In this document: positions 13,745 through 28,216 of the stretch, piece by piece | Position numbering within the stretch: position 1 is the first letter of the stretch | Layout of the letters: every line of letters starts with the position of its first letter | DNA from: Hormiphora californensis | Lineage: Eukaryota > Animalia > Ctenophora | DNA length: 64,000 nucleotides | Assembly: GCA_020137815.1 (NCBI GenBank) | Contig: CM035352.1 | Coordinates: forward strand, 5,208,001 to 5,272,000 | Direction: 5' to 3' | The notes under the pieces: generated by a model | The model's database searches: none | What the model was told of the DNA's origin: nothing | What the model saw: the letters and a program-made list of their open reading frames with translations, nothing else | Position numbers and translations under genes: made by a program

Positions 13745-14347
13745 AACCGTTCCTACTATAACCCTTTCCTAATTCAGTACACATATTGACATCTAAAGTG
13801 CGTTGACTGACCTGAGATTCCTGTCAGGCAAGGGACAGGTGGCTACCAAGCCTGGATGCCGCTAAATCTAGGCTGTCCCAGAGCTAGCTAGGGACAGTAC
13901 ACATATTGACATCTAGAAACGCACCTGGATTATTATTGTTGACAAAGTAGACCTCATCCGAGTTGGTACATTTATACACCACCCGTTTTGTACCAGGAAG
14001 CGCACACCTCAACTTCAGGAACCGATGCGGGGTGATGACAAGGGTACAGTTGCTTATTCCTGCGTGTGGAAGATTAGCTTTCATGAGAAGTGAGAACATA
14101 ATGAACATTGAACACTGACCAGTCTAGCAGTTTTCATTTGTCGGGGGAATGTGGTTTTTGGCACGGTAGACTGATAACCATATCAAAACTACATCATTGA
14201 GACGTTTAGTAAAAAATTGCTAAAAACTTATTTACTTGAAAAATGGTAACACAATTGATTTGATTTGACAAGATTACAAGAGCGGTTGTCATGGGCGTGA
14301 GCTTACCTTGTTAAACAAGGTAAGTTCACGCCAAAACAAAACAAGTT

Positions 14348-14389
14348 GTTTCAAACTTTTCAACACTACTTTAAACAAATTAATTTGAG
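14348..14389 (+). other. Retroposed copy of the ctenophore spliced-leader exon at the LINE 5' end
   Basis: GTTTCAAACTTTTCAACACTACTTTAAACAAATTAATTTGAG matches the pleurobrachiid SL as I recall it. It is followed by TTTGCC rather than a GT donor, so it is not an SL RNA gene. Confidence 0.8.
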
Positions 14390-14529
14390 TTTGCCGTCAA
14401 TCGATCCGATAACTGTGTTAGCATCTATTCTCTAATCTTTTAGATCTCTGTTAGGCCTACTTTAACTTAACTTACGAGTGATATCAGTGAAGAGTTTGTT
14501 GTTGGCCGGCGTGCAACGGGTGTTTTAGG

Positions 14530-16907
14530 ATGACCGTTACGAGTAATTATGACATATGTATCACTAAGAGTGATTTTGAAGACGTGTTAGCAGGAGAAGT
14601 ATTTAGTAATGATTATAAGGGTAGTGATTTGTTAGTGTGTCTAGAGAGAGGTGACGCTGTTTGTCCGTCGTCTGTCCATAAACCTCAGTTGTGGCACCTT
14701 CTCAAAGCCTGCTACAAAATGCTTCCGGCGATGGCACCGTTTTCTGTTCCTGGAGACCAAGCTGATCTGAGAGAATCGTTTGCAAAGTTACACAAAGATC
14801 TGGTCTCAACCATCTCTGCACTAGTAAAACCTGTGGAGAAAGGGAAAGATGATGTTGGTAATGGTGAGCCTGAGGAACCGGTTACACCTACGATGAAACA
14901 CTATGTGAACATTACCACTGGGAACAGCGGAGAAGGAGAATCAGCGTTCTGTGCTGATAAGTGGAAGAATGTGGTCAAACCAAAGGTGGAAAGTGCTTTG
15001 AAGACTATACCGGTAGTGAGATCCAGAGTAAACAGTGACCATACCCGATTATACTTCCCTAATGAGGACCAGATGAAGGAAGCAGAGAAAGTACTGACTC
15101 CTCTTGCACAGGATTGTTCAGTGTCATTTTTCTCAGAGGAAACCAAGAAGCTTGAACCAAAGGTGACGATAAATGACTTGGGCCCCGACCTACTTGAAAA
15201 GGAAGCTATCCTGGCGGCGATCTTGGACAAGAATGAGGATATCAGGAAGCTGTATCATGAGGATAAGAAGTTAAAAGTGGTGTTTGTGAACGAAAGAGAC
15301 AGGTATGCAGTGATCCAGATGGCTCCAGAGATCCGGCGGCTTTTGTCTAGCAGTGGGGATAGACTTAACTTGGGTCTTCGGCAACATTTTGTCAAAAACA
15401 GGTATCATGTGATTCAATGTTATCACTGCCAAGGATTTGGTCACATGGCGGGCTCTGTATATTGCCCTCAGGGGGGGGGTGACACGTAACACTTTGTAAC
15501 ACTTTGTAACATGTAACGTGCACAAAAAGTTTTCTGCACATGTTACAAAGTGTTACAAAGTGTTACAAAGTGTTACATAGTGTTACAAAGTGTTACATAG
15601 TGTTACATAGTGTTACAAAGTGTTACATAGTGTTACAAAGTGTTACATAGTGTTACAAAGTGTTACATAGTGTTACAAAGTGTTACATAGTGTTACAAAG
15701 TGTTACATAGTGTTACAAAGTGTTACATAGTGTTACAAAGTGTCACAAAGTGTTACATAGTGTCACAAAGTGTTACAAATTGTTACAAAGTGTTACAAAT
15801 TGTTACAAAATATTTACAAAATATATAAGACGGTTGGTGAATAAGTAATTTGAACGACTTTGGTGTCTTTTTAGAACACATCTAAAAGTTTTAAATCATT
15901 TCTAAGGTTAAAACATACACTTTTTTACTAATTTGCGGATGTTTTGAGCCTCCGATGTCATCGACTGTGGAAATCAGGGCTGAAATAGTCCATTTGGTAA
16001 AAAAATATGAACTTTAGACAACGGTAAAGTTTTTAGAGTGATATTAAAAGTATTGTGCCTCTCAGAGGCCCCCAATGTGCTGAGTCACCTGTGAGTTGTG
16101 ACCCAATCGACTTTTTTTCATTGGTAATCGATTCTTTGTACTTAATAAGATGATATACAACGTTTCTGTTGGAAAAAGAAATAAAATTTTTCCAAAATCA
16201 ATTTTTTGGTCAACGATTGAAAATTTGCTTCGCTACAAATCCTTGTGTGTTTGTAAATATTTTGTAACAATTTGTAACACTTTGTAACAATTTGTAACAC
16301 TTTGTGACACTATGTAACACTTTGTGACACTTTGTAACACTATGTAACACTTTGTAACACTTTGTAACACTTTGTAACACTTTGTAACACTATGTAACAC
16401 TTTGTAACACTATGTAACACTTTGTAACACTATGTAACACTTTGTAACACTTTGTAACACTTTGTAACACTATGTAACACTTTGTAACACTATGTAACAC
16501 TTAGTAACACTATGTAACACTTTGTAACATGTAACGTGCACAAAAAGTTTTCTGCACATGTTACAAAGTGTTACAAAGTGTTACGTGTCACCCCCCCCCC
16601 CCCTCAGAAGGATGATCCTGTATGCTGCTTTTGTGCTGGCACACATCAGACGAAGGATTGTAGAGCGAAGAAGAACAATGAAACAGGCAAGATGAAGTGT
16701 GTGAATTGTGAAGTTGGAGGATCACGAGAGGACAAGAAGTATGCGAAGACCCACACGGCTTCAAGTATGTGGTGCCCTTCGTACATTAACGAGCGAGCAC
16801 GGCTAATGGAGAGGACTTCAGGTGTGAGCAAAGAGGAAAAAAACATGTACTGGACGAGGACCAAAGAGGAACTACTCAGGAAAAGACTTGGAAGATTGGG
16901 ACACTAA
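14530..16907 (+). CDS. LINE ORF1 (gag-like, CCHC zinc knuckles), interrupted by a DNA element
   Basis: Removing 15472-16607 fuses ...QCYHCQGFGHMAGSVYCPQ to KDDPVCCFCAGTHQTKDC...KCVNC...HTASSMWCP in frame (about 413 aa). Confidence 0.85.
15472..16601. mobile_element. Non-autonomous DNA element with poly-G/poly-C termini and 10-bp subterminal arrays
   Basis: G-run+TGACACGTAAC ... GTTACGTGTCA+C-run; arrays of TGTTACA(A/T)AG in inverted orientation; TSD about CCTCAG (exact length blurred by the homopolymers). Confidence 0.85.
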
Positions 16908-19831
16908 ATGTTCGCTCTCTTGTTAATAAAACTGGAGGTGTTATTTCTCATCTGGAAGAAGAGGATTGTGATATCTGTCTCGTACAGGAAACCTTTTTGA
17001 AGTCTACGGATACTGGGAAACTCCAGGAGATTAGGGATAATGGATGGGATATTTTATCATGTCCACGAGGAGACAGAGGAGGTGGAGGAATAGGAATTCT
17101 TTTTCGGGACGGTATAGTCCTTCGACAGTGCCCAGTGAAGACAAAGTTTAAGTCTTTTCAAGTGCAGGAGGTTCTCATCAGTGACAGAGATCAACCAAAG
17201 AGACTCTGTAATGTTTATCGTCCACCATACACAACTAAGTCAAGACTCACAGAGGCTACATTCCTATCTGAGTTCGGAGACTATCTTTCAGAACTTGTTA
17301 TGAAGCAAGGTACTCCAATTATAGCAGGGGATCTGAACTTTCAGGTGCAGGACAAGAACAACTTCTACTCGAGGAAACTATTGGAGCTTCTAGATTCATT
17401 TGACCTTCAGCAAAGAGTACCACTATTGCCTACTCACCAACTTGGTGGAACCTTAGACCTGGTGATAACTACAAGGGAAACCAATCTAGGAGATTTAACA
17501 ATTTGTCCTAATGGTACTACTTCGGACCACTTCCTGGTACAGTTTGGGCTTGAAGTGAGACAGGACCTGTCAAACTCTTGTATGCGGAAATCAATGTTTC
17601 GAGAATACATGGACTACAAGTCAATGGACAAGGAAGGATTCAGAGAGGACCTCCAGAAAGCGGAATTTGAACCAGGCCGGGATCCAGAGGAGAGTATTGT
17701 AAACTTCTATCGTTGGTTGGAAAGTGTAGTGGAAAGGCGAGTTCCGAGGAAACGGGTGAGGACAGGGAAAAAGTTTAAACCGTGGAGAGATGAGGAACTA
17801 AGAGGAATACTACGTAAGAGGAGGAGTGCGGAACGATACTGGAGGAAGCATGGAACTGAGGAAGCGAAACGGAGATTCAATGATTTGAAGAAGCTCTATG
17901 GAAACATGGACAAGGAAAAGAGAGCAGCTTTTGTTAAAGAGGACTTGGATGCGGCAAAAGGGGACCCGAAGAAGCTACAAAGAAAGTTACAGAAACTCCT
18001 GGGAAAAGCGGAAACTATTCTTCCTGAGACTACCAACAACAAGAACCTGGCTGATGATTTTTCAAAGTTCTTTAGTTCAAAGGTGACCAAAATTCGGACC
18101 CAAGTCAATGAGGAGCAGCAGCAGGCTGGCGATTTTGTGGAATCTGGAAAATCCTGTCATACAACATGGAATGAATTCAAAGAGATATCTGAGGAGGAAC
18201 TTGTTTCATTAGTGAAATCGATGTCCAGCAAGCACTGTGACCTGGACCCGTTGCCCACTTGGGTGGTAAAGGAGTGTATAAGTGATCTGGCTCCTGCATT
18301 AACATCAATAGTCAATCAGTCTCTACATCAGTCTTCGGTCGCAGAATCTCTCCAGGAGGCACTTGTCTTTCCTACCATCAAGAATATGTATGGAGATCGT
18401 GAAGCTCTCAGCAACTATCGTCCTGTTTCGAACATCCCATTTCTGTCTAAGCTTCTTGAGAAGGTAGTTCTCACGCAACTCAATGACTACCTGGATCGCA
18501 ACTCTCTTTTGGGCAAACATCAGTCTGGCTATCGTGTTGGTCACAGTTGTGAAACGCTATTGGCAAGCATGTTCGATGACATTCTAGGGGAAATGGATAA
18601 AGGAAACGTAGTAGCTCTTATCTGTCTAGATATGAGTGCTGCTTTTGATACGGTTGACCATGGAAAGTTGTTGGAGGTGTTGCAGAAACGGTTTGGAGTG
18701 GATGGTGAACCTCTCCGATGGTTTAAAAGCTATTTGAGTTCCAGATCTTTTAGAGTTTCGGTCGGTGATTGCCTTTCGGAAACCCTTGCTTTACTTTGTG
18801 GAGTCCCTCAAGGGTCCCTCCTTGGTCCTATTTTGTTCCTACTCTACATCGAGGCTGTACAAGATATTGTGGAGCCATATGGACTCCGGATAAAGTTATA
18901 TGCAGATGATTCCCAGCTCTACGTGAGTCTGGTTCCTACGGATGCTGCTGGCTGGGTTGAGGCAAAGGTGGATATTGAGGAGTGTCTGGCGAAGGTGAAG
19001 AGGTGGATGGTAGGGCAGTGGTTGAAGTGTAATGAGGCCAAAACGGAATTCATCCTGCTTGGAAAGCGCAGTTCTCTAAGCAAAGTCTCTTTTGATCCAG
19101 TTATTAACTTTGGAGGAACGGAAATCTCCCCCAGTGAATGTAGTGGAACAGATGGTAAAACCCTGGGAATTCTCTTGGATCATAACCTTGGCCTTGAACG
19201 ACAGGTTAACAATGTGAGGAAACAGTGTGGACTGATGTTACGAAACCTTTGGCAACTGCACAGGTGTTTTGATATCCCAACAAAGATAATGTTGGTCAAA
19301 CAGTTGATTTTATCGAGGATAGACTACAGTAACATTCTGTATTGTGGACTTCCTGGTCGAGTTCTCAGTGGGCTCCAGAAGCTTCTCAATGCCTGTGTTC
19401 GTTTTGTATTTAACCTCCACGGACACCAGGACAACTACATGGAGTATTTCAGGCAATGTCATATTTTGCCGATCTCCTACAGGTTGGACTTCAAAGCATG
19501 TTTGATTGCCTACAAAATAGTCAATGGAACAGCCCCGTGTTATCTCCAGGATTTGGTGCCACGTGATGAGACTTGGGGAACCTCTAGGACAACGAGGATG
19601 ACTAATGTTCCGGATCCCTATAGGTTAAAACATCCAAAGATGACCAGTATCAATGCCAACTCTAAGTTGAGACGTAGGAGGTTATCAGTATTCCTGCCCT
19701 CTGTCTGGAATGAGCTTCCTCTTGAGCTCAGGTCAATCCCCAATGTGGATACTTTCAAAACCCGGCTGAAAACACATCTCTTCGTTGGTGCATTTGGAGT
19801 GGGTGATGGGGAACCCATGGCTGAGTTGTAA
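16835..19831 (+). CDS. LINE ORF2: apurinic-like endonuclease + reverse transcriptase, intact
   Basis: APE motifs GTLNVRS, QET, GDLN, TLDL, SDH; RT motifs NYRPVS, DMSAAFDTVDH, GVPQGSLLGP, YADD. The frame is open upstream into ORF1 with no ATG before the APE domain. Confidence 0.95.
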   Translation, partial: GKKHVLDEDQRGTTQEKTWKIGTLNVRSLVNKTGGVISHLEEEDCDICLVQETFLKSTDTGKLQEIRDNGWDILSCPRGDRGGGGIGILFRDGIVLRQCPVKTKFKSFQVQEVLISDRDQPKRLCNVYRPPYTTKSRLTEATFLSEFGDYLSELVMKQGTPIIAGDLNFQVQDKNNFYSRKLLELLDSFDLQQRVPLLPTHQLGGTLDLVITTRETNLGDLTICPNGTTSDHFLVQFGLEVRQDLSNSCMRKSMFREYMDYKSMDKEGFREDLQKAEFEPGRDPEESIVNFYRWLESVVERRVPRKRVRTGKKFKPWRDEELRGILRKRRSAERYWRKHGTEEAKRRFNDLKKLYGNMDKEKRAAFVKEDLDAAKGDPKKLQRKLQKLLGKAETILPETTNNKNLADDFSKFFSSKVTKIRTQVNEEQQQAGDFVESGKSCHTTWNEFKEISEEELVSLVKSMSSKHCDLDPLPTWVVKECISDLAPALTSIVNQSLHQSSVAESLQEALVFPTIKNMYGDREALSNYRPVSNIPFLSKLLEKVVLTQLNDYLDRNSLLGKHQSGYRVGHSCETLLASMFDDILGEMDKGNVVALICLDMSAAFDTVDHGKLLEVLQKRFGVDGEPLRWFKSYLSSRSFRVSVGDCLSETLALLCGVPQGSLLGPILFLLYIEAVQDIVEPYGLRIKLYADDSQLYVSLVPTDAAGWVEAKVDIEECLAKVKRWMVGQWLKCNEAKTEFILLGKRSSLSKVSFDPVINFGGTEISPSECSGTDGKTLGILLDHNLGLERQVNNVRKQCGLMLRNLWQLHRCFDIPTKIMLVKQLILSRIDYSNILYCGLPGRVLSGLQKLLNACVRFVFNLHGHQDNYMEYFRQCHILPISYRLDFKACLIAYKIVNGTAPCYLQDLVPRDETWGTSRTTRMTNVPDPYRLKHPKMTSINANSKLRRRRLSVFLPSVWNELPLELRSIPNVDTFKTRLKTHLFVGAFGVGDGEPMAEL

Positions 19832-20728
19832 TGTTTGTTGTAGTTGTGGGGCCTGCGGGCAATCAGTGTCATCCTCTCTCTAGCCATGTTATTAATTCAT
19901 TACCTAGTATCCTTTTTTCGAGCAGGTGTGAGTATAGTGTGTTTTAATTTATATCTACAGGATTATGGGACCAGTTATTCCCTCAGTTTTATAAGTCAAG
20001 TTTATTTAGTCGTCTATATATTGTTTTTCAACCAGAGCTGTTCGAGTGTGTCATATAAGTAGTCGAGGATATACCGCTCTGATGATTCGGCGGAACATCG
20101 TCAATATTTTGACATGTCTCTGTCGGGTATGGGCGGTATATAAGCGCGGAATATTATTATTATTATTATTATTGTTCAAACAGCTGGGGTGCGGGGAGAG
20201 AGTCGAGGGTCGAGCAAGGAAAAACTTACCATTATCGAGTTTGTCGCTCGTTGAATTTGTCCAGGAAGTTACCACTGCTATCCACAAAGTCAGAGGAAGG
20301 TAACGAATCATTTTGGAATTCCACAACTGTTTTCCAGTGTGGATGATTGCTTATTTAAAGAACTCGTAATTCCTTTGTCACAGCTCACTTGAACAACAGT
20401 ATGGGATAAAGTAAAGGAGCTCTAATATGCCTTAAACAAAGGGAACAGCAAGGACAAAGCAAGTGACAACTTTGTCATGGCAAAGTACTTTAGCGAATTT
20501 TAAATTTTAAAGCAATTAGAGTTCCTTTATACAAAACTTTTCATTGTATTTGTAAATAGTTGAATTTATTAAAATTAAATGTCCTAAATTAGAATGAATG
20601 TCTCTAGTATTTACAGCTCTGGGGCCATGTAAAACAATTTAGCATGGCACCCGTAATTATAAAGTACAACCCCAAGGGCCCTTTGTTTCACGAAATTGGT
20701 TCACGAAAAGTAGTCGGTAGAAATGTAA

Positions 20729-21066
20729 GGGCGGAGTCACACCAAGATCTTCGAAAGAATTGTTTCGACGCACCAAACTCAATCACACTGAAAAGTTTGG
20801 TTGGTTCTTCACAGCAGGCGTTCAGTTGTTGTGGACGCCTGCTGTGCGCGGCGCATTGGCACGTGCATCTTGGGCGCTGGCAGGCTTCTATATGTTACAA
20901 CATGTGAAAGCCTGCCAGCGCCCAAGATGCACGTGCCAATGCGCCGCGCACAGCAGGCGTTCACAACAACTGAACGCCTGCTGTGGAGAACCAACCATAC
21001 TTTTCAGTGTGATTGAGTTTGGTGCGTCGAAACAATTCTTTCGAAGATCTTGGTGTGATTCCGCCC
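20729..21066. mobile_element. Palindromic MITE, PIF/Harbinger (Tourist-like)
   Basis: ~160-bp near-perfect arms beginning GGGCGGAGTCACACCA; flanks TAA/TCA. Confidence 0.65.
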
Positions 21067-21093
21067 TCATAGTTCTTGTGAGACAAATGATAT

Positions 21094-21425
21094 TATATGA
21101 TTAGATGACTGGTTAAAATGGTCTATTACTTTTTAGTGCACGAGGCCGAAGGCCGAGTGTTCTAAATACAACAATAATGAACCGAGACCGACAGGTCGAG
21201 GTAGATCCTTTTACTTAGCTGCCGAGCCTGCGAGGCACGCTAAGTGTAACTACTGAGCGAGCCTGCGAGCTCTGTAGTTGTACTTTTGGGCCGAGCCTGC
21301 GAGGCCTAAAAGTGAAAGAATCTTTAACATTATTGTTGTGTAATAGAGCATGTAAAAGCAGTCATCTAATTTTATTAGATGATTTTGGAAACAAACTGAG
21401 TGAACGAGATATAGATTGAGCGAGT

Positions 21426-21493
<68 letters not shown>

Positions 21494-22283
21494 GAGAGAA
21501 AGAGAGATAGAGAATGTGTGTGAGAGAGATATAGGGAAAGAGAGAATCGAAGGCAGAGAGAGAAAGCAGATGCAGGCCGCTCATTGGGGTGGTGCCATCA
21601 CGTGACGATCACGTGACCTATAGTTGCAGAGGGGAAGAAAAGATAAGGGTTAGGGCGTGTGTGACGATCACGTGACCTAGAAGAGTTGCAACATGTCGCA
21701 GAGGGAAAGAAAAGATAAGCGTGTGCTGTTGCGTGTGCAGTAGTTAGGGCGTGTGTACTGTGTAGTGACGTAATGTTCACACTGTGTGCGTGTGACTAGA
21801 AAGTGTCTAATTTTTCACATACCACTGCAACGGTATTTTACTTTATAATTACTAGTGTTTTTGCAGTGGTCTAAGTTTTCACAGTACACTGTAACCGGTG
21901 GTCACAGTGTACTGTGAAAACTTAGATAACCGGTTAAAATTGTCTAATATATGATTAGATGACTGGTTAAAATGGTCTATTACTTTTTAGTGCACGAGGC
22001 CGAAGGCCGAGTGTTCTAAATACAACAATAATGAACCGAGACCGACAGGTCGAGGTAGATCCTTTTACTTAGCTGCCGAGCCTGCGAGGCACGCTAAGTG
22101 TAACTACTGAGCGAGCCTGCGAGCTCTGTAGTTGTACTTTTGGGCCGAGCCTGCGAGGCCTAAAAGTGAAAGAATCTTTAACATTATTGTTGTGTAATAG
22201 AGCATGTAAAAGCAGTCATCTAATTTTATTAGATGATTTTGGAAACAAACTGAGTGAACGAGATATAGATTGAGCGAGTGAGT

Positions 22284-22345
<62 letters not shown>

Positions 22346-22801
22346 GAGAGAAAGAGAGATAGAGAATGTGTGTGAGAGAGATATAGGGAAAGAGAGAATC
22401 GAAGGCAGAGAGAGAAAGCAGATGCAGGCCGCTCATTGGGGTGGTGCCATCACGTGACGATCACGTGACCTATAGTTGCAGAGGGGAAGAAAAGATAAGG
22501 GTTAGGGCGTGTGTGACGATCACGTGACCTAGAAGAGTTGCAACATGTCGCAGAGGGAAAGAAAAGATAAGCGTGTGCTGTTGCGTGTGCAGTAGTTAGG
22601 GCGTGTGTACTGTGTAGTGACGTAATGTTCACACTGTGTGCGTGTGACTAGAAAGTGTCTAATTTTTCACATACCACTGCAACGGTATTTTACTTTATAA
22701 TTACTAGTGTTTTTGCAGTGGTCTAAGTTTTCACAGTACACTGTAACCGGTGGTCACAGTGTACTGTGAAAACTTAGATAACCGGTTAAAATTGTCTAAT
22801 A
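21094..22801. mobile_element. Head-to-tail dimer of an ~853-bp non-coding element (Crypton-like)
   Basis: Two near-identical units (21094-21947, 21948-22801) with CGAGGCCGAAGGCCGAG-type hairpins, ATTAGATGAC / GTCATCTAAT inverted motifs and internal (GA)n; no TSD seen. Confidence 0.6.
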
Positions 22802-26625: not shown

Positions 26626-26858
26626 TCGCATTGTTTTGAAATTTGAATGTACCACGCTAGTCACTAGTGTCCCTGAGCTAGGGGACTGGCCCCTTATTAA
26701 GTCGTGGCACTGTAGTTTAGCGGAGTCAAGAAACTTGTCACCGTGACAAGTTTCTTGACTCCGCTAAACTACAGTGCCACGACTTAATAAGGGGCCAGTC
26801 CCCTAGCTCAGGGACACTAGTGACTAGCGTGGTACATTCAAATTTCAAAACAATGCGA
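26626..26858. repeat. Perfect 233-bp palindrome (1-nt spacer) immediately upstream of CLP1
   Basis: 116-bp arms are exact reverse complements around position 26742. Confidence 0.95.
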
Positions 26859-26934
26859 ATCATCCGGGATGACTCGTCCCCCTGTATTTACACACATTTT
26901 TGCACATCCCCTACTAACTACTTGTTTGCAGGCC

Positions 26935-28216
26935 ATGCCTTACTACGACAGGAAAGATGACGACAAATGGATGACTCGAGTGATAACCAGCGAGAATGAG
27001 CTGCGTTTTGAGGTTGATACGGAGGAGGTCTCCCTGACATTGGTAGAAGGCCAGGCAGAGATATTCGGTACCGAGATACCCATTAACAAAATGTACACTT
27101 TTGTTCCAGGGCTCAGCGTGGCAGTGTTTTCCTGGCGGGGCTGTCGGCTAAAGATTTCCTCGCACTGTAAAACTGATTATGTCAGTAAACAGACGCCCAT
27201 GGTGGTGTACCTCCAGACCCATGGGGCCCTTCAACAGATGAGGAGTAACGCCGAGAGAGATGGGAAGGACGGACCTAGGAATTTTAGTAGTTGGGCCCCA
27301 GGATGTGGGGAAATCAACTCTCTGTAGACTGCTGTGTAACTACGCAGTGAGAATGAAACAACAGCCGGTGTATGTTGATCTAGATGTGGGTCAGGGTTCT
27401 ATTGGGGTGCCTGGGTCTGTTGGTGCACTGGTTTTAGAGAGACAGGCGGATGTGGAGGAAGGGTTCACTGAGCAACTCCCGATTATATATCACTTTGGTT
27501 ATAATGTACCCGATGCCAACTGGGATCTGTACAACGAGCTATCTAAACGGATAGCTGAGGACATTGACAAGAAGTTCGAATTTAGTGCCAAGGCCCGGTA
27601 CAGTGGTTTTGTGGTTAACACGTGTGGGTACGTGACAGGAGATGGGTACAGGTTTATCAAAGAAGCGGTGGATATTTTCAAGATTAACTGCATCTTGGTT
27701 ATCGATCATGAGAAGCTTTTCAACGATCTCCAGAGGGATATCCCAGAGTCTAAAGCCACGTCCATCCTACTACCTAAGAGTGGTGGTGTGGTAAAACGGA
27801 ACATGCCCTGTCGGAAACGAACCAGGGAAAATAGAATCCGGCAATATTTCTATGGCCTCCGACGGCCTCTAAACCCCTATGTTTTCAACCTCGGGTTTGA
27901 TGAGATCGAGATATACAAGATTGGGGGACAGGACGTGAATGCTGCTCTGCTGCCCATTAATAAAATCAGCGACCTAAAAAACAAGCTACACAGTGTCAGG
28001 GTAGAGATTGATAACGAGATTCTCCACTCAGTCCTGAGTCTAGTGTATGGTAAACCACCCGATCTGCTGTGTTCCACAGTGGCAGGATTTATTGTTGTCA
28101 AGGATGTTGATATGGAGAAGAGAGAGATAACGGTGCTCGCCCCCATTCCCCATCCCCTACCTCATAGGGTTGCACTTCTCGCTGACACCAAGTATAATGA
28201 TGATGGGGCGTCTTGA
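26935..28216 (+). CDS. CLP1: Polyribonucleotide 5'-hydroxyl kinase Clp1 (single apparent +1 indel near 27280)
   Basis: ENELRFEV...GQAEIFGTE...VAVFSWRGC, then P-loop VVGPQDVGKSTLCRLLCNYAVR, DLDVGQG, NTCG, LPKSGGVV. Intronless CDS; preceded by TACTAAC branch point and TGCAG acceptor. Confidence 0.93.

Follow-up and report, generated by a model that had tools for sequence, protein, structure and literature searches.

A LINE headed by the host spliced leader in the ctenophore Hormiphora californensis, with a proposed dependence on trans-splicing

The locus and the structure of the element

The stretch of DNA analyzed here, referred to below as the window, comprises 64,000 nucleotides of the genome of the ctenophore Hormiphora californensis (GCA_020137815.1, contig CM035352.1, positions 5,208,001 to 5,272,000 of the forward strand). 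At window positions 14348–20173 it contains a long interspersed nuclear element (LINE) that begins with the spliced leader (SL) of its host. The initial annotation had taken the first 42 nt of the element for this leader, and the comparison bears this out: positions 14348–14389 are identical in 42 of 42 letters to nt 3–44 of the H. californensis SL as printed in the genome paper (PMC8527503). The chance expectation for such a 42-mer is about 1e-19, and the last 25 nt of the copy have no second occurrence in the window and none in 100 shuffles. The SL copy ends in TTTGAG and, as annotated, is joined directly to the LINE 5' untranslated region (UTR), which starts with TTTGCC; neither a GT donor nor the SL intron stands behind it. 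In this species the SL is present on 56% of Iso-Seq reads and in 718 genomic copies (PMC8527503).

The leader and the LINE are enclosed by one target-site duplication (TSD). The pentamer TTGTT occurs as an exact duplicate at the two ends of the element, its left copy overlapping nt 3–5 of the SL, and the TTCAAAC that starts at 14350 is repeated at 20175. The resemblance that had been proposed between the 5' junction and the 3' flank past the (TTA)n tail is confirmed as an exact duplication of TTGTT and an imperfect one up to 10 nt, over which the junctions agree except for one extra T on the left. The insertion has the marks of an SL-tagged retro-sequence, the retrocopy of a trans-spliced RNA: the exon of the host SL stands at its 5' end with no donor or intron behind it, and one TSD surrounds both SL and LINE.

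The LINE belongs to the type with an apurinic/apyrimidinic endonuclease (APE) and two open reading frames (ORFs), since ORF2 encodes APE and a reverse transcriptase (RT), an ORF1 lies upstream, and the element has a simple-repeat tail and a TSD without long terminal repeats (LTRs) (Table 1). The first ATG after the SL is the start of ORF1 at 14530. Three Cys/His knuckles are recognized by eye in ORF1, which is interrupted in the window copy, and Pfam reports zf-CCHC_6 (E = 0.002, below the cut-off). The RT motifs of ORF2 are presumably L2/Crack-like. The protein predicted from ORF2 shares 94% identity with one whose 90% cluster contains a gene model of Pleurobrachia bachei, which points to a pleurobrachiid ctenophore as the host. 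The earliest in-frame ATG of ORF2, at 17300, falls within the APE domain, and most examined members of the closest protein cluster likewise start within the APE motif; several relatives at about 58% identity have a Met 14 residues upstream. In the overlap of the two frames (16790–16907) a slippery-type heptamer, A AAA AAC, is located in ORF1 phase at 16838–16844, and no stable fold is predicted downstream of it (-13.9 versus -14.6 +/- 3.1). Translation of ORF2 may possibly involve a -1 frameshift or a non-AUG start.

The description of the LINE as intact in the initial annotation did not hold, as ORF1 is split by an insert of 1133 bp that resembles a miniature inverted-repeat transposable element (MITE). 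The insert has terminal inverted repeats with 283-nt arms at 96% identity (the full arms measure about 350 bp), which consist of 10-bp tandem arrays with about 27 copies of the unit, and it is flanked by duplicated TCA at 15468–15470 and 16604–16606; owing to the G/C runs this duplication may extend to at most 7 bp. By its termini we take the insert to be PIF/Harbinger- or Zator-like, and no second copy of it is present in the window. The 5' frame of ORF1 meets a stop at 15489, inside the insert, and is broken just after the first zinc knuckle, which shows the window copy to be a non-autonomous source.

A search of the whole window with Rfam gave no matches at gathering score, and in particular no ribozyme at the LINE 5' end; the 12 weak matches by the 5' junction are all below gathering. 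The predicted fold of SL plus UTR is not better than that of shuffled sequences (-32.6 versus -36.7 +/- 4.0 kcal/mol).

Table 1. Coordinates of the LINE, its spliced leader and the associated repeats in the window
Feature	Positions	Strand	Basis
Left TSD copy TTGTT; its final 3 nt also form the start of the retained SL (microhomology)	14346–14350	+	Repeat comparison
SL nt 3–44, ending TTTGAG	14348–14389	+	Match to published SL
LINE 5' UTR, no upstream ATG, 140 nt	14390–14529	+	Sequence reading
ORF1 5' part, ends in first CCHC knuckle (CYHC..H..C)	14530–15470	+	zf-CCHC_6 E = 0.002, below curated cut-off
Non-autonomous inverted-repeat (MITE-like) insert, 1133 bp, G/C-run termini	15471–16603		Inverted-repeat analysis
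ORF1 3' part, two further Cys/His knuckles; overlaps ORF2, -1 frame	16607–16907	+	Translation
Frame of ORF2, open for 1013 aa between stops; APE and RT domains	16790–19831	+	RVT_1 E = 1.9e-26; Exo_endo_phos E = 1.9e-10
3' UTR	19832–20152	+	Sequence reading
(ATT)7 tail	20153–20173	+	Sequence reading
Right TSD copy TTGTT, then CAAAC resembling SL 5' end	20172–20176	+	Repeat comparison

The leader junction in the LINE family and the flanks of the insertion

The sequence was compared with Logan contigs of six of the 22 listed public runs. Three of them (X1, X2, and X5) are DNA samples under one organism label, X9 is DNA under a second label, X16 is RNA, and X7 is by our guess RNA as well. The comparison of the family with X5, X1, X9, and X16 covered positions 14378–14475, with only the last 12 SL letters included and the letters beyond 14378 outside it; the three DNA runs gave 72 contigs, and the details below come from the 20 pieces and all nine loose ends listed for them. 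Depth serves as a rough copy number, and contigs show presence, not absence.

The junction between SL and UTR was found in each of the three DNA runs. In X1 (four contigs) an 83-nt contig spans 14378–14446 with no differences at depth 1228, which relative to the single-locus-like contigs of this run (depth 34.7 and 39.1) gives a ratio of 31–35. Two X5 contigs over 14378–14417, out of 36 in that run, have depths of 1815 and 1969 (sum 3785), corresponding to 12 times the flank depth of 309 or 25 times a half-depth locus. The 32 contigs of X9 include three with depths of 2489, 1650, and 351 that run from 14378 to 14431/14432 and carry substitutions and indels in the UTR, and the summed depth in this run is flat over 14378–14393, without a step at 14390. 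Contigs of single-locus depth were detectable in the comparison (35–39 in X1, 93–150 in X5).

Non-SL sequence ahead of the junction is absent from the four contigs of X1 and the 32 of X9 and is present in two of the 36 of X5. One of these two loose ends is presumably an Illumina adapter, and the other, which lacks an AG, has a depth that subtraction puts at about 4.6. An unspliced master copy with an AG-ending acceptor was not detected among the 72 contigs, which show presence only. In X1, a variant copy whose UTR differs by two substitutions and an insertion of 2 nt retains the 12 SL letters. In a more diverged relative, itself single-copy, an SL-like relic (TCAACACTAC AAATT) lies upstream, at most 30 nt from the aligned part (chance of the 10-mer about 7e-4). 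The concern raised in the initial annotation, that other copies might lack the SL, is thus answered for the last 12 SL letters: the same junction occurs at a depth of tens of copies. Within these limits the SL/UTR junction is a trait of the family, present in tens of copies and also under the second organism label.

Further genomic SLs appear as loose ends in the comparison of the flanks, for which the stretch 14000–15465 was used and 24 of the 225 loose ends were listed. Before 14348 they end in 29 contigs of X2 and 15 of X5; behind 14389, 35 contigs of X2 have a GTAAG consensus at 0.5 agreement, and 21 of X5 a non-GT consensus at 0.42. This agrees with a mixture in which some SLs belong to SL RNA genes and others head retro-sequences. 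The many copies followed by non-GT sequence suggest further SL-headed elements or retrocopies of mRNAs, and the variety of the sequences behind genomic SLs is consistent with routine copying of SL-capped RNA. No SL match above the shuffled null was found at 80 metagenome loci (best score 29, null maxima 25–31). These were collected with an alignment of 36 ORF2 sequences (the window and 35 of 120 listed homologues) from two of 64 parts; being distant (26–45% in the best segment) and mostly LINEs of other hosts, they are uninformative on the family of the window LINE. The SL pattern had no matches in viral contigs.

The 5' flank of the insertion is single-copy: X2 and X5 each have one contig for it, at depths of 18 and 309, respectively. 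That of X2 stops at 14351, and the 1160-nt contig of X5 tracks the flank to the same position and then runs for 583 nt through sequence unlike SL or LINE, the putative 3' flank. Its point of divergence is one base beyond the plain TTGTT prediction and may reflect a single-nucleotide polymorphism. From these contigs we infer that the insertion is absent from the X5 sample and heterozygous in the X2 sample, and the locus looks polymorphic. The 3' flank in the window contains neither a GT donor nor an SL intron.

On the minus strand, a candidate exon at 20311–20230 has an ATG, a hydrophobic N-terminus, and a GTAAGT donor, and it joins in frame a candidate second exon at 14059–13925 that is preceded by a branch-like site, pyrimidines, and CAG. 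The two may belong to a secreted or membrane host gene; a homology search with the second exon gave no match. They are situated upstream of an LDLa-repeat seven-transmembrane receptor gene, which occupies several frames of the minus strand at about 8.8–11.3 kb. A near-perfect hairpin with 19-bp arms (14294–14332) ends 14 nt before the insertion and has donor-like GTAAG on both strands. Elsewhere in the window there are a 358-nt palindrome at 20719–21076 (178-nt arms, 94%), probably a foldback element, and a tandem duplication of about 850 bp with a GA microsatellite at 21091–22800. The Clp1 gene at 26824–28216 (Pfam CLP1_P and Clp1) has an inverted repeat just upstream, seen by eye at about 26660–26830.

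Origin and renewal of the leader

The initial annotation proposed that the LINE RNA had been trans-spliced before reverse transcription. This proposal is well supported by the exact joining of the LINE to the 3' end of the SL within one TSD. In the light of target-primed reverse transcription and SL trans-splicing, such a joining is the expected product when SL-capped RNA is reverse-transcribed; SL-capped RNA is likely the form being copied, hence the SL-headed family. In the model that we propose, full-length target-primed reverse transcription of an SL-capped LINE RNA would copy the SL, and the SL 5' end could anneal to the look-alike end of the target through GTT/CAAAC microhomology and so prime the second strand. 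Annealing of this kind would explain why SL nt 1–2 are missing here. Any RNA polymerase II transcript that enters a copy in the sense direction would then be cleaved at TTTGAG and receive a new capped SL, and re-splicing at TTTGAG would regenerate an identical 5' end without stacking leaders.

We lean slightly toward the terminal AG of the copied SL acting as the trans-splice acceptor of the next round. Re-splicing is favoured because leaders are not stacked, no ribozyme was found, the 12 SL letters compared are constant while the UTR drifts, and in Hydra about 30% of the transcripts of transposable elements (TEs) are SL-capped (PMC12220107). No second, decayed SL was found in the UTR, where the best match is 9 nt long and is equalled by 3.6% of 500 shuffles. 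More tentatively, the LINE family might have no promoter of its own and use the host SL as a self-regenerating 5' end that is released from any passing transcript; such LINE heads, along with other retrocopies of SL-capped RNA, would then account for part of the approximately 700 ctenophore SL copies, and the arrangement would have persisted in at least two pleurobrachiid lineages. The status of the LINE as trans-splicing-dependent is accordingly offered as a hypothesis.

Several observations weigh against re-splicing of the copied leader. The site itself ends in GAG rather than YAG, has six pyrimidines in 11 positions, and has its branch-like TTAAT just about 6 nt upstream; GAG is a weaker type of acceptor. 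Acceptor-like sites in the LINE 5' UTR end at 14421, 14443, 14454, 14487, and 14528, among which the TAG at 14443 has 9/11 pyrimidines and a branch-like CTAAT at 14432, and no SL joined at 14422, 14444, or 14455 was seen among the nine loose ends of the three DNA runs. The 31-mer contigs are unable to link flank, whole SL, and UTR: only the variant contig of X1 extends at least 31 letters to either side of the junction, the high-depth contigs reach 12–26 letters into the SL side, and 12 SL letters are too short to separate a refreshed from an inherited SL. The junction depth in X1 (1267) is lower than that just downstream (1801), perhaps through coverage bias or filtered contigs. At the RNA level, X16 gave no contigs for 14378–14475, and X7 has pieces of SL and ORF1 at depth 3–4 and nothing over 14392–14979. 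Finally, the window copy, with its broken ORF1, is probably antisense within a 344-nt intron of the host gene predicted from the two candidate exons.

Two 3' splice sites of textbook appearance are found at 14432–14443 and 14523–14530, the second of which stops 1 nt short of the ORF1 start codon. They could give SL-spliced isoforms for translation that are not retrotransposed. One X7 contig looks like a tandem SL, but a fold-back at the palindromic end of the SL explains it better.

The main alternative, less probable than re-splicing, is that the SL was captured once from the trans-spliced RNA of an ancestor and has been inherited as DNA ever since. The SL, the 140-nt UTR, or both would then serve as an internal promoter, as is usual for LINE 5' ends, with transcription starting at SL +1 or close to it and no need for re-splicing. 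An SL exon can act as a promoter element, as in Ascaris. A single capture accounts for the one fixed junction, for the absence of tandem leaders, and for the lack of copies in which a stronger TAG site farther downstream was used, and a precedent exists in trypanosomes, trans-splicing hosts whose LINEs have a 77-nt internal promoter that binds TBP/SNAP50 and produces unspliced transcripts (PMC8190864). Against it, the window copy is identical in 42 of 42 letters to the published mRNA leader, its terminal AG is positioned for splicing, and 12 SL letters appear unchanged in UTR-variant copies under two organism labels, a stretch too short to discriminate between capture and renewal. Alternatively, all RNA could come from one or a few unspliced masters equipped with promoter, outron, and acceptor, the SL-headed copies being dead ends. 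Such a master is the simplest way for a LINE RNA to gain an SL in the first place, and if single-copy it could escape detection since the filter drops some Logan contigs. We nevertheless regard this as improbable, because no AG-ending non-SL contig precedes 14390 among the 72 although contigs of single loci were detected, and several UTR variants each with the SL point to SL-headed sources.

The possibility that the SL, or a retrocopy of it, was joined to the LINE at this locus only, by a one-off chimera or an assembly artefact, has to be considered since H. californensis has hundreds of genomic SL copies (718; PMC8527503) and chimeric assembly was raised for similar cases by the authors of the Schistosoma mansoni study (PMC5832876). 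With the junction at 12–35 times single-locus depth in two samples, its presence under a second organism label, and one TSD enclosing SL and LINE, it is very improbable. Hardly credible, in turn, is a site-specific insertion into SL RNA genes in the manner of NeSL, CRE, or SLACS, which would make the SL target DNA. The target end, GTTCAAAC, does resemble the SL 5' end; against this stand the 3' flank without GT donor or SL intron, the single-copy 5' flank and its 583-nt continuation in X5 that is neither SL nor LINE, an endonuclease of the APE rather than the restriction-like type (RLE), and the position of the SL inside the TSD. Insertion into SL gene arrays was rejected on the first three of these grounds (donorless 3' flank, single-copy 5' flank, APE). 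The initial annotation had allowed for flanks derived from SL RNA genes; those observed are of another kind, and this reading is already contradicted for the locus.

Relation to known systems and significance

Genomic leaders attached to retrotransposons, like the one described here, are known from parasitic flatworms, where partial leaders at 597 LTR and LINE loci were read as integrated trans-spliced TE transcripts (PMC12582326), and from S. mansoni, for which the integration of trans-spliced transcripts was suggested at six SL-TE loci (PMC5832876). In the accessible portions of both papers the flatworm leaders are partial and belong to discarded loci, no junction across a family, TSD, or cycle is analyzed, and chimeric assembly is possible; in contrast, the leader in the window is nearly full-length, lies inside a TSD, and has a junction that by depth extends to the whole family. 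The retrogenes with SL relics of dinoflagellates share with our model the reverse transcription of SL-capped RNA and the later re-splicing of the genomic leader (PMC12014239). They differ in being host genes mobilized in trans, with truncated relics stacked behind a new SL (PMC12014239), whereas here the retrotransposon itself carries one leader; a tandem of SL and relic does not occur in the window DNA copy. Use of the host trans-splicing machinery by animal transposon RNAs is illustrated by the SL-capped TE transcripts of Hydra and by Cer1 of Caenorhabditis elegans, whose short mRNA is SL1-spliced and whose 8-kb gag-pol RNA is not (PMC12220107, PMC3315495). Both cases concern RNA, and the accessible portions of these papers do not report the SL as a heritable genomic 5' end (PMC12220107, PMC3315495).

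Among LINEs, the APE-RT ORF2, three CCHC knuckles of a type I ORF1, simple-repeat tail, and short TSD are shared with the CR1/L2 group of the Jockey superfamily (PMC4120745); the likeness is one of domain layout, and the window element differs from the group in having the host SL as its 5' end. NeSL and CRE, which insert into SL genes (PMC3636483), likewise place a LINE beside an SL exon of a host that trans-splices. Together with SLACS they use SL arrays as target and have a restriction-like endonuclease and one ORF, whereas the element described here has APE, two ORFs, and the SL inside its TSD; it shows neither an RLE with a single ORF nor SL RNA gene flanks with a GT donor after the element. 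SLACS and CZAR are SL-gene-specific RLE retrotransposons, and an outron model exists for NeSL-1. R2 is released from host rRNA co-transcripts by a ribozyme resembling that of hepatitis delta virus. If re-splicing holds, this promoterless element that is cut, with a defined 5' end, from a host transcript would be a functional analogue of the window LINE, for which the proposed cutter is the host spliceosome with the SL RNA. Co-transcription of R2 with host rRNA is described in PMC3636483. No description of a ctenophore LINE family whose fixed 5' end is the SL was found in a search that left subscription papers and Repbase outside, and the accessible portions of PMC2566580, PMC12460157, PMC7986045, and PMC3795323 contain nothing on SL-headed LINEs.

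For the Hormiphora genome, SL-headed retro-sequences offer a testable account of the 718 SL copies, which are counted and left unclassified in the accessible text of the genome paper (PMC8527503), and they caution against taking every genomic SL copy for an SL RNA gene. As regards the LINEs, two ways of keeping a complete 5' end are internal promoters, as in L1 and Pr77, and ribozymes, as in R2. If the re-splicing model is true, LINEs would have a third route to an expressible 5' end, namely a heritable SL that the spliceosome of the host re-creates, and convergence on it would be predicted wherever SL trans-splicing exists.

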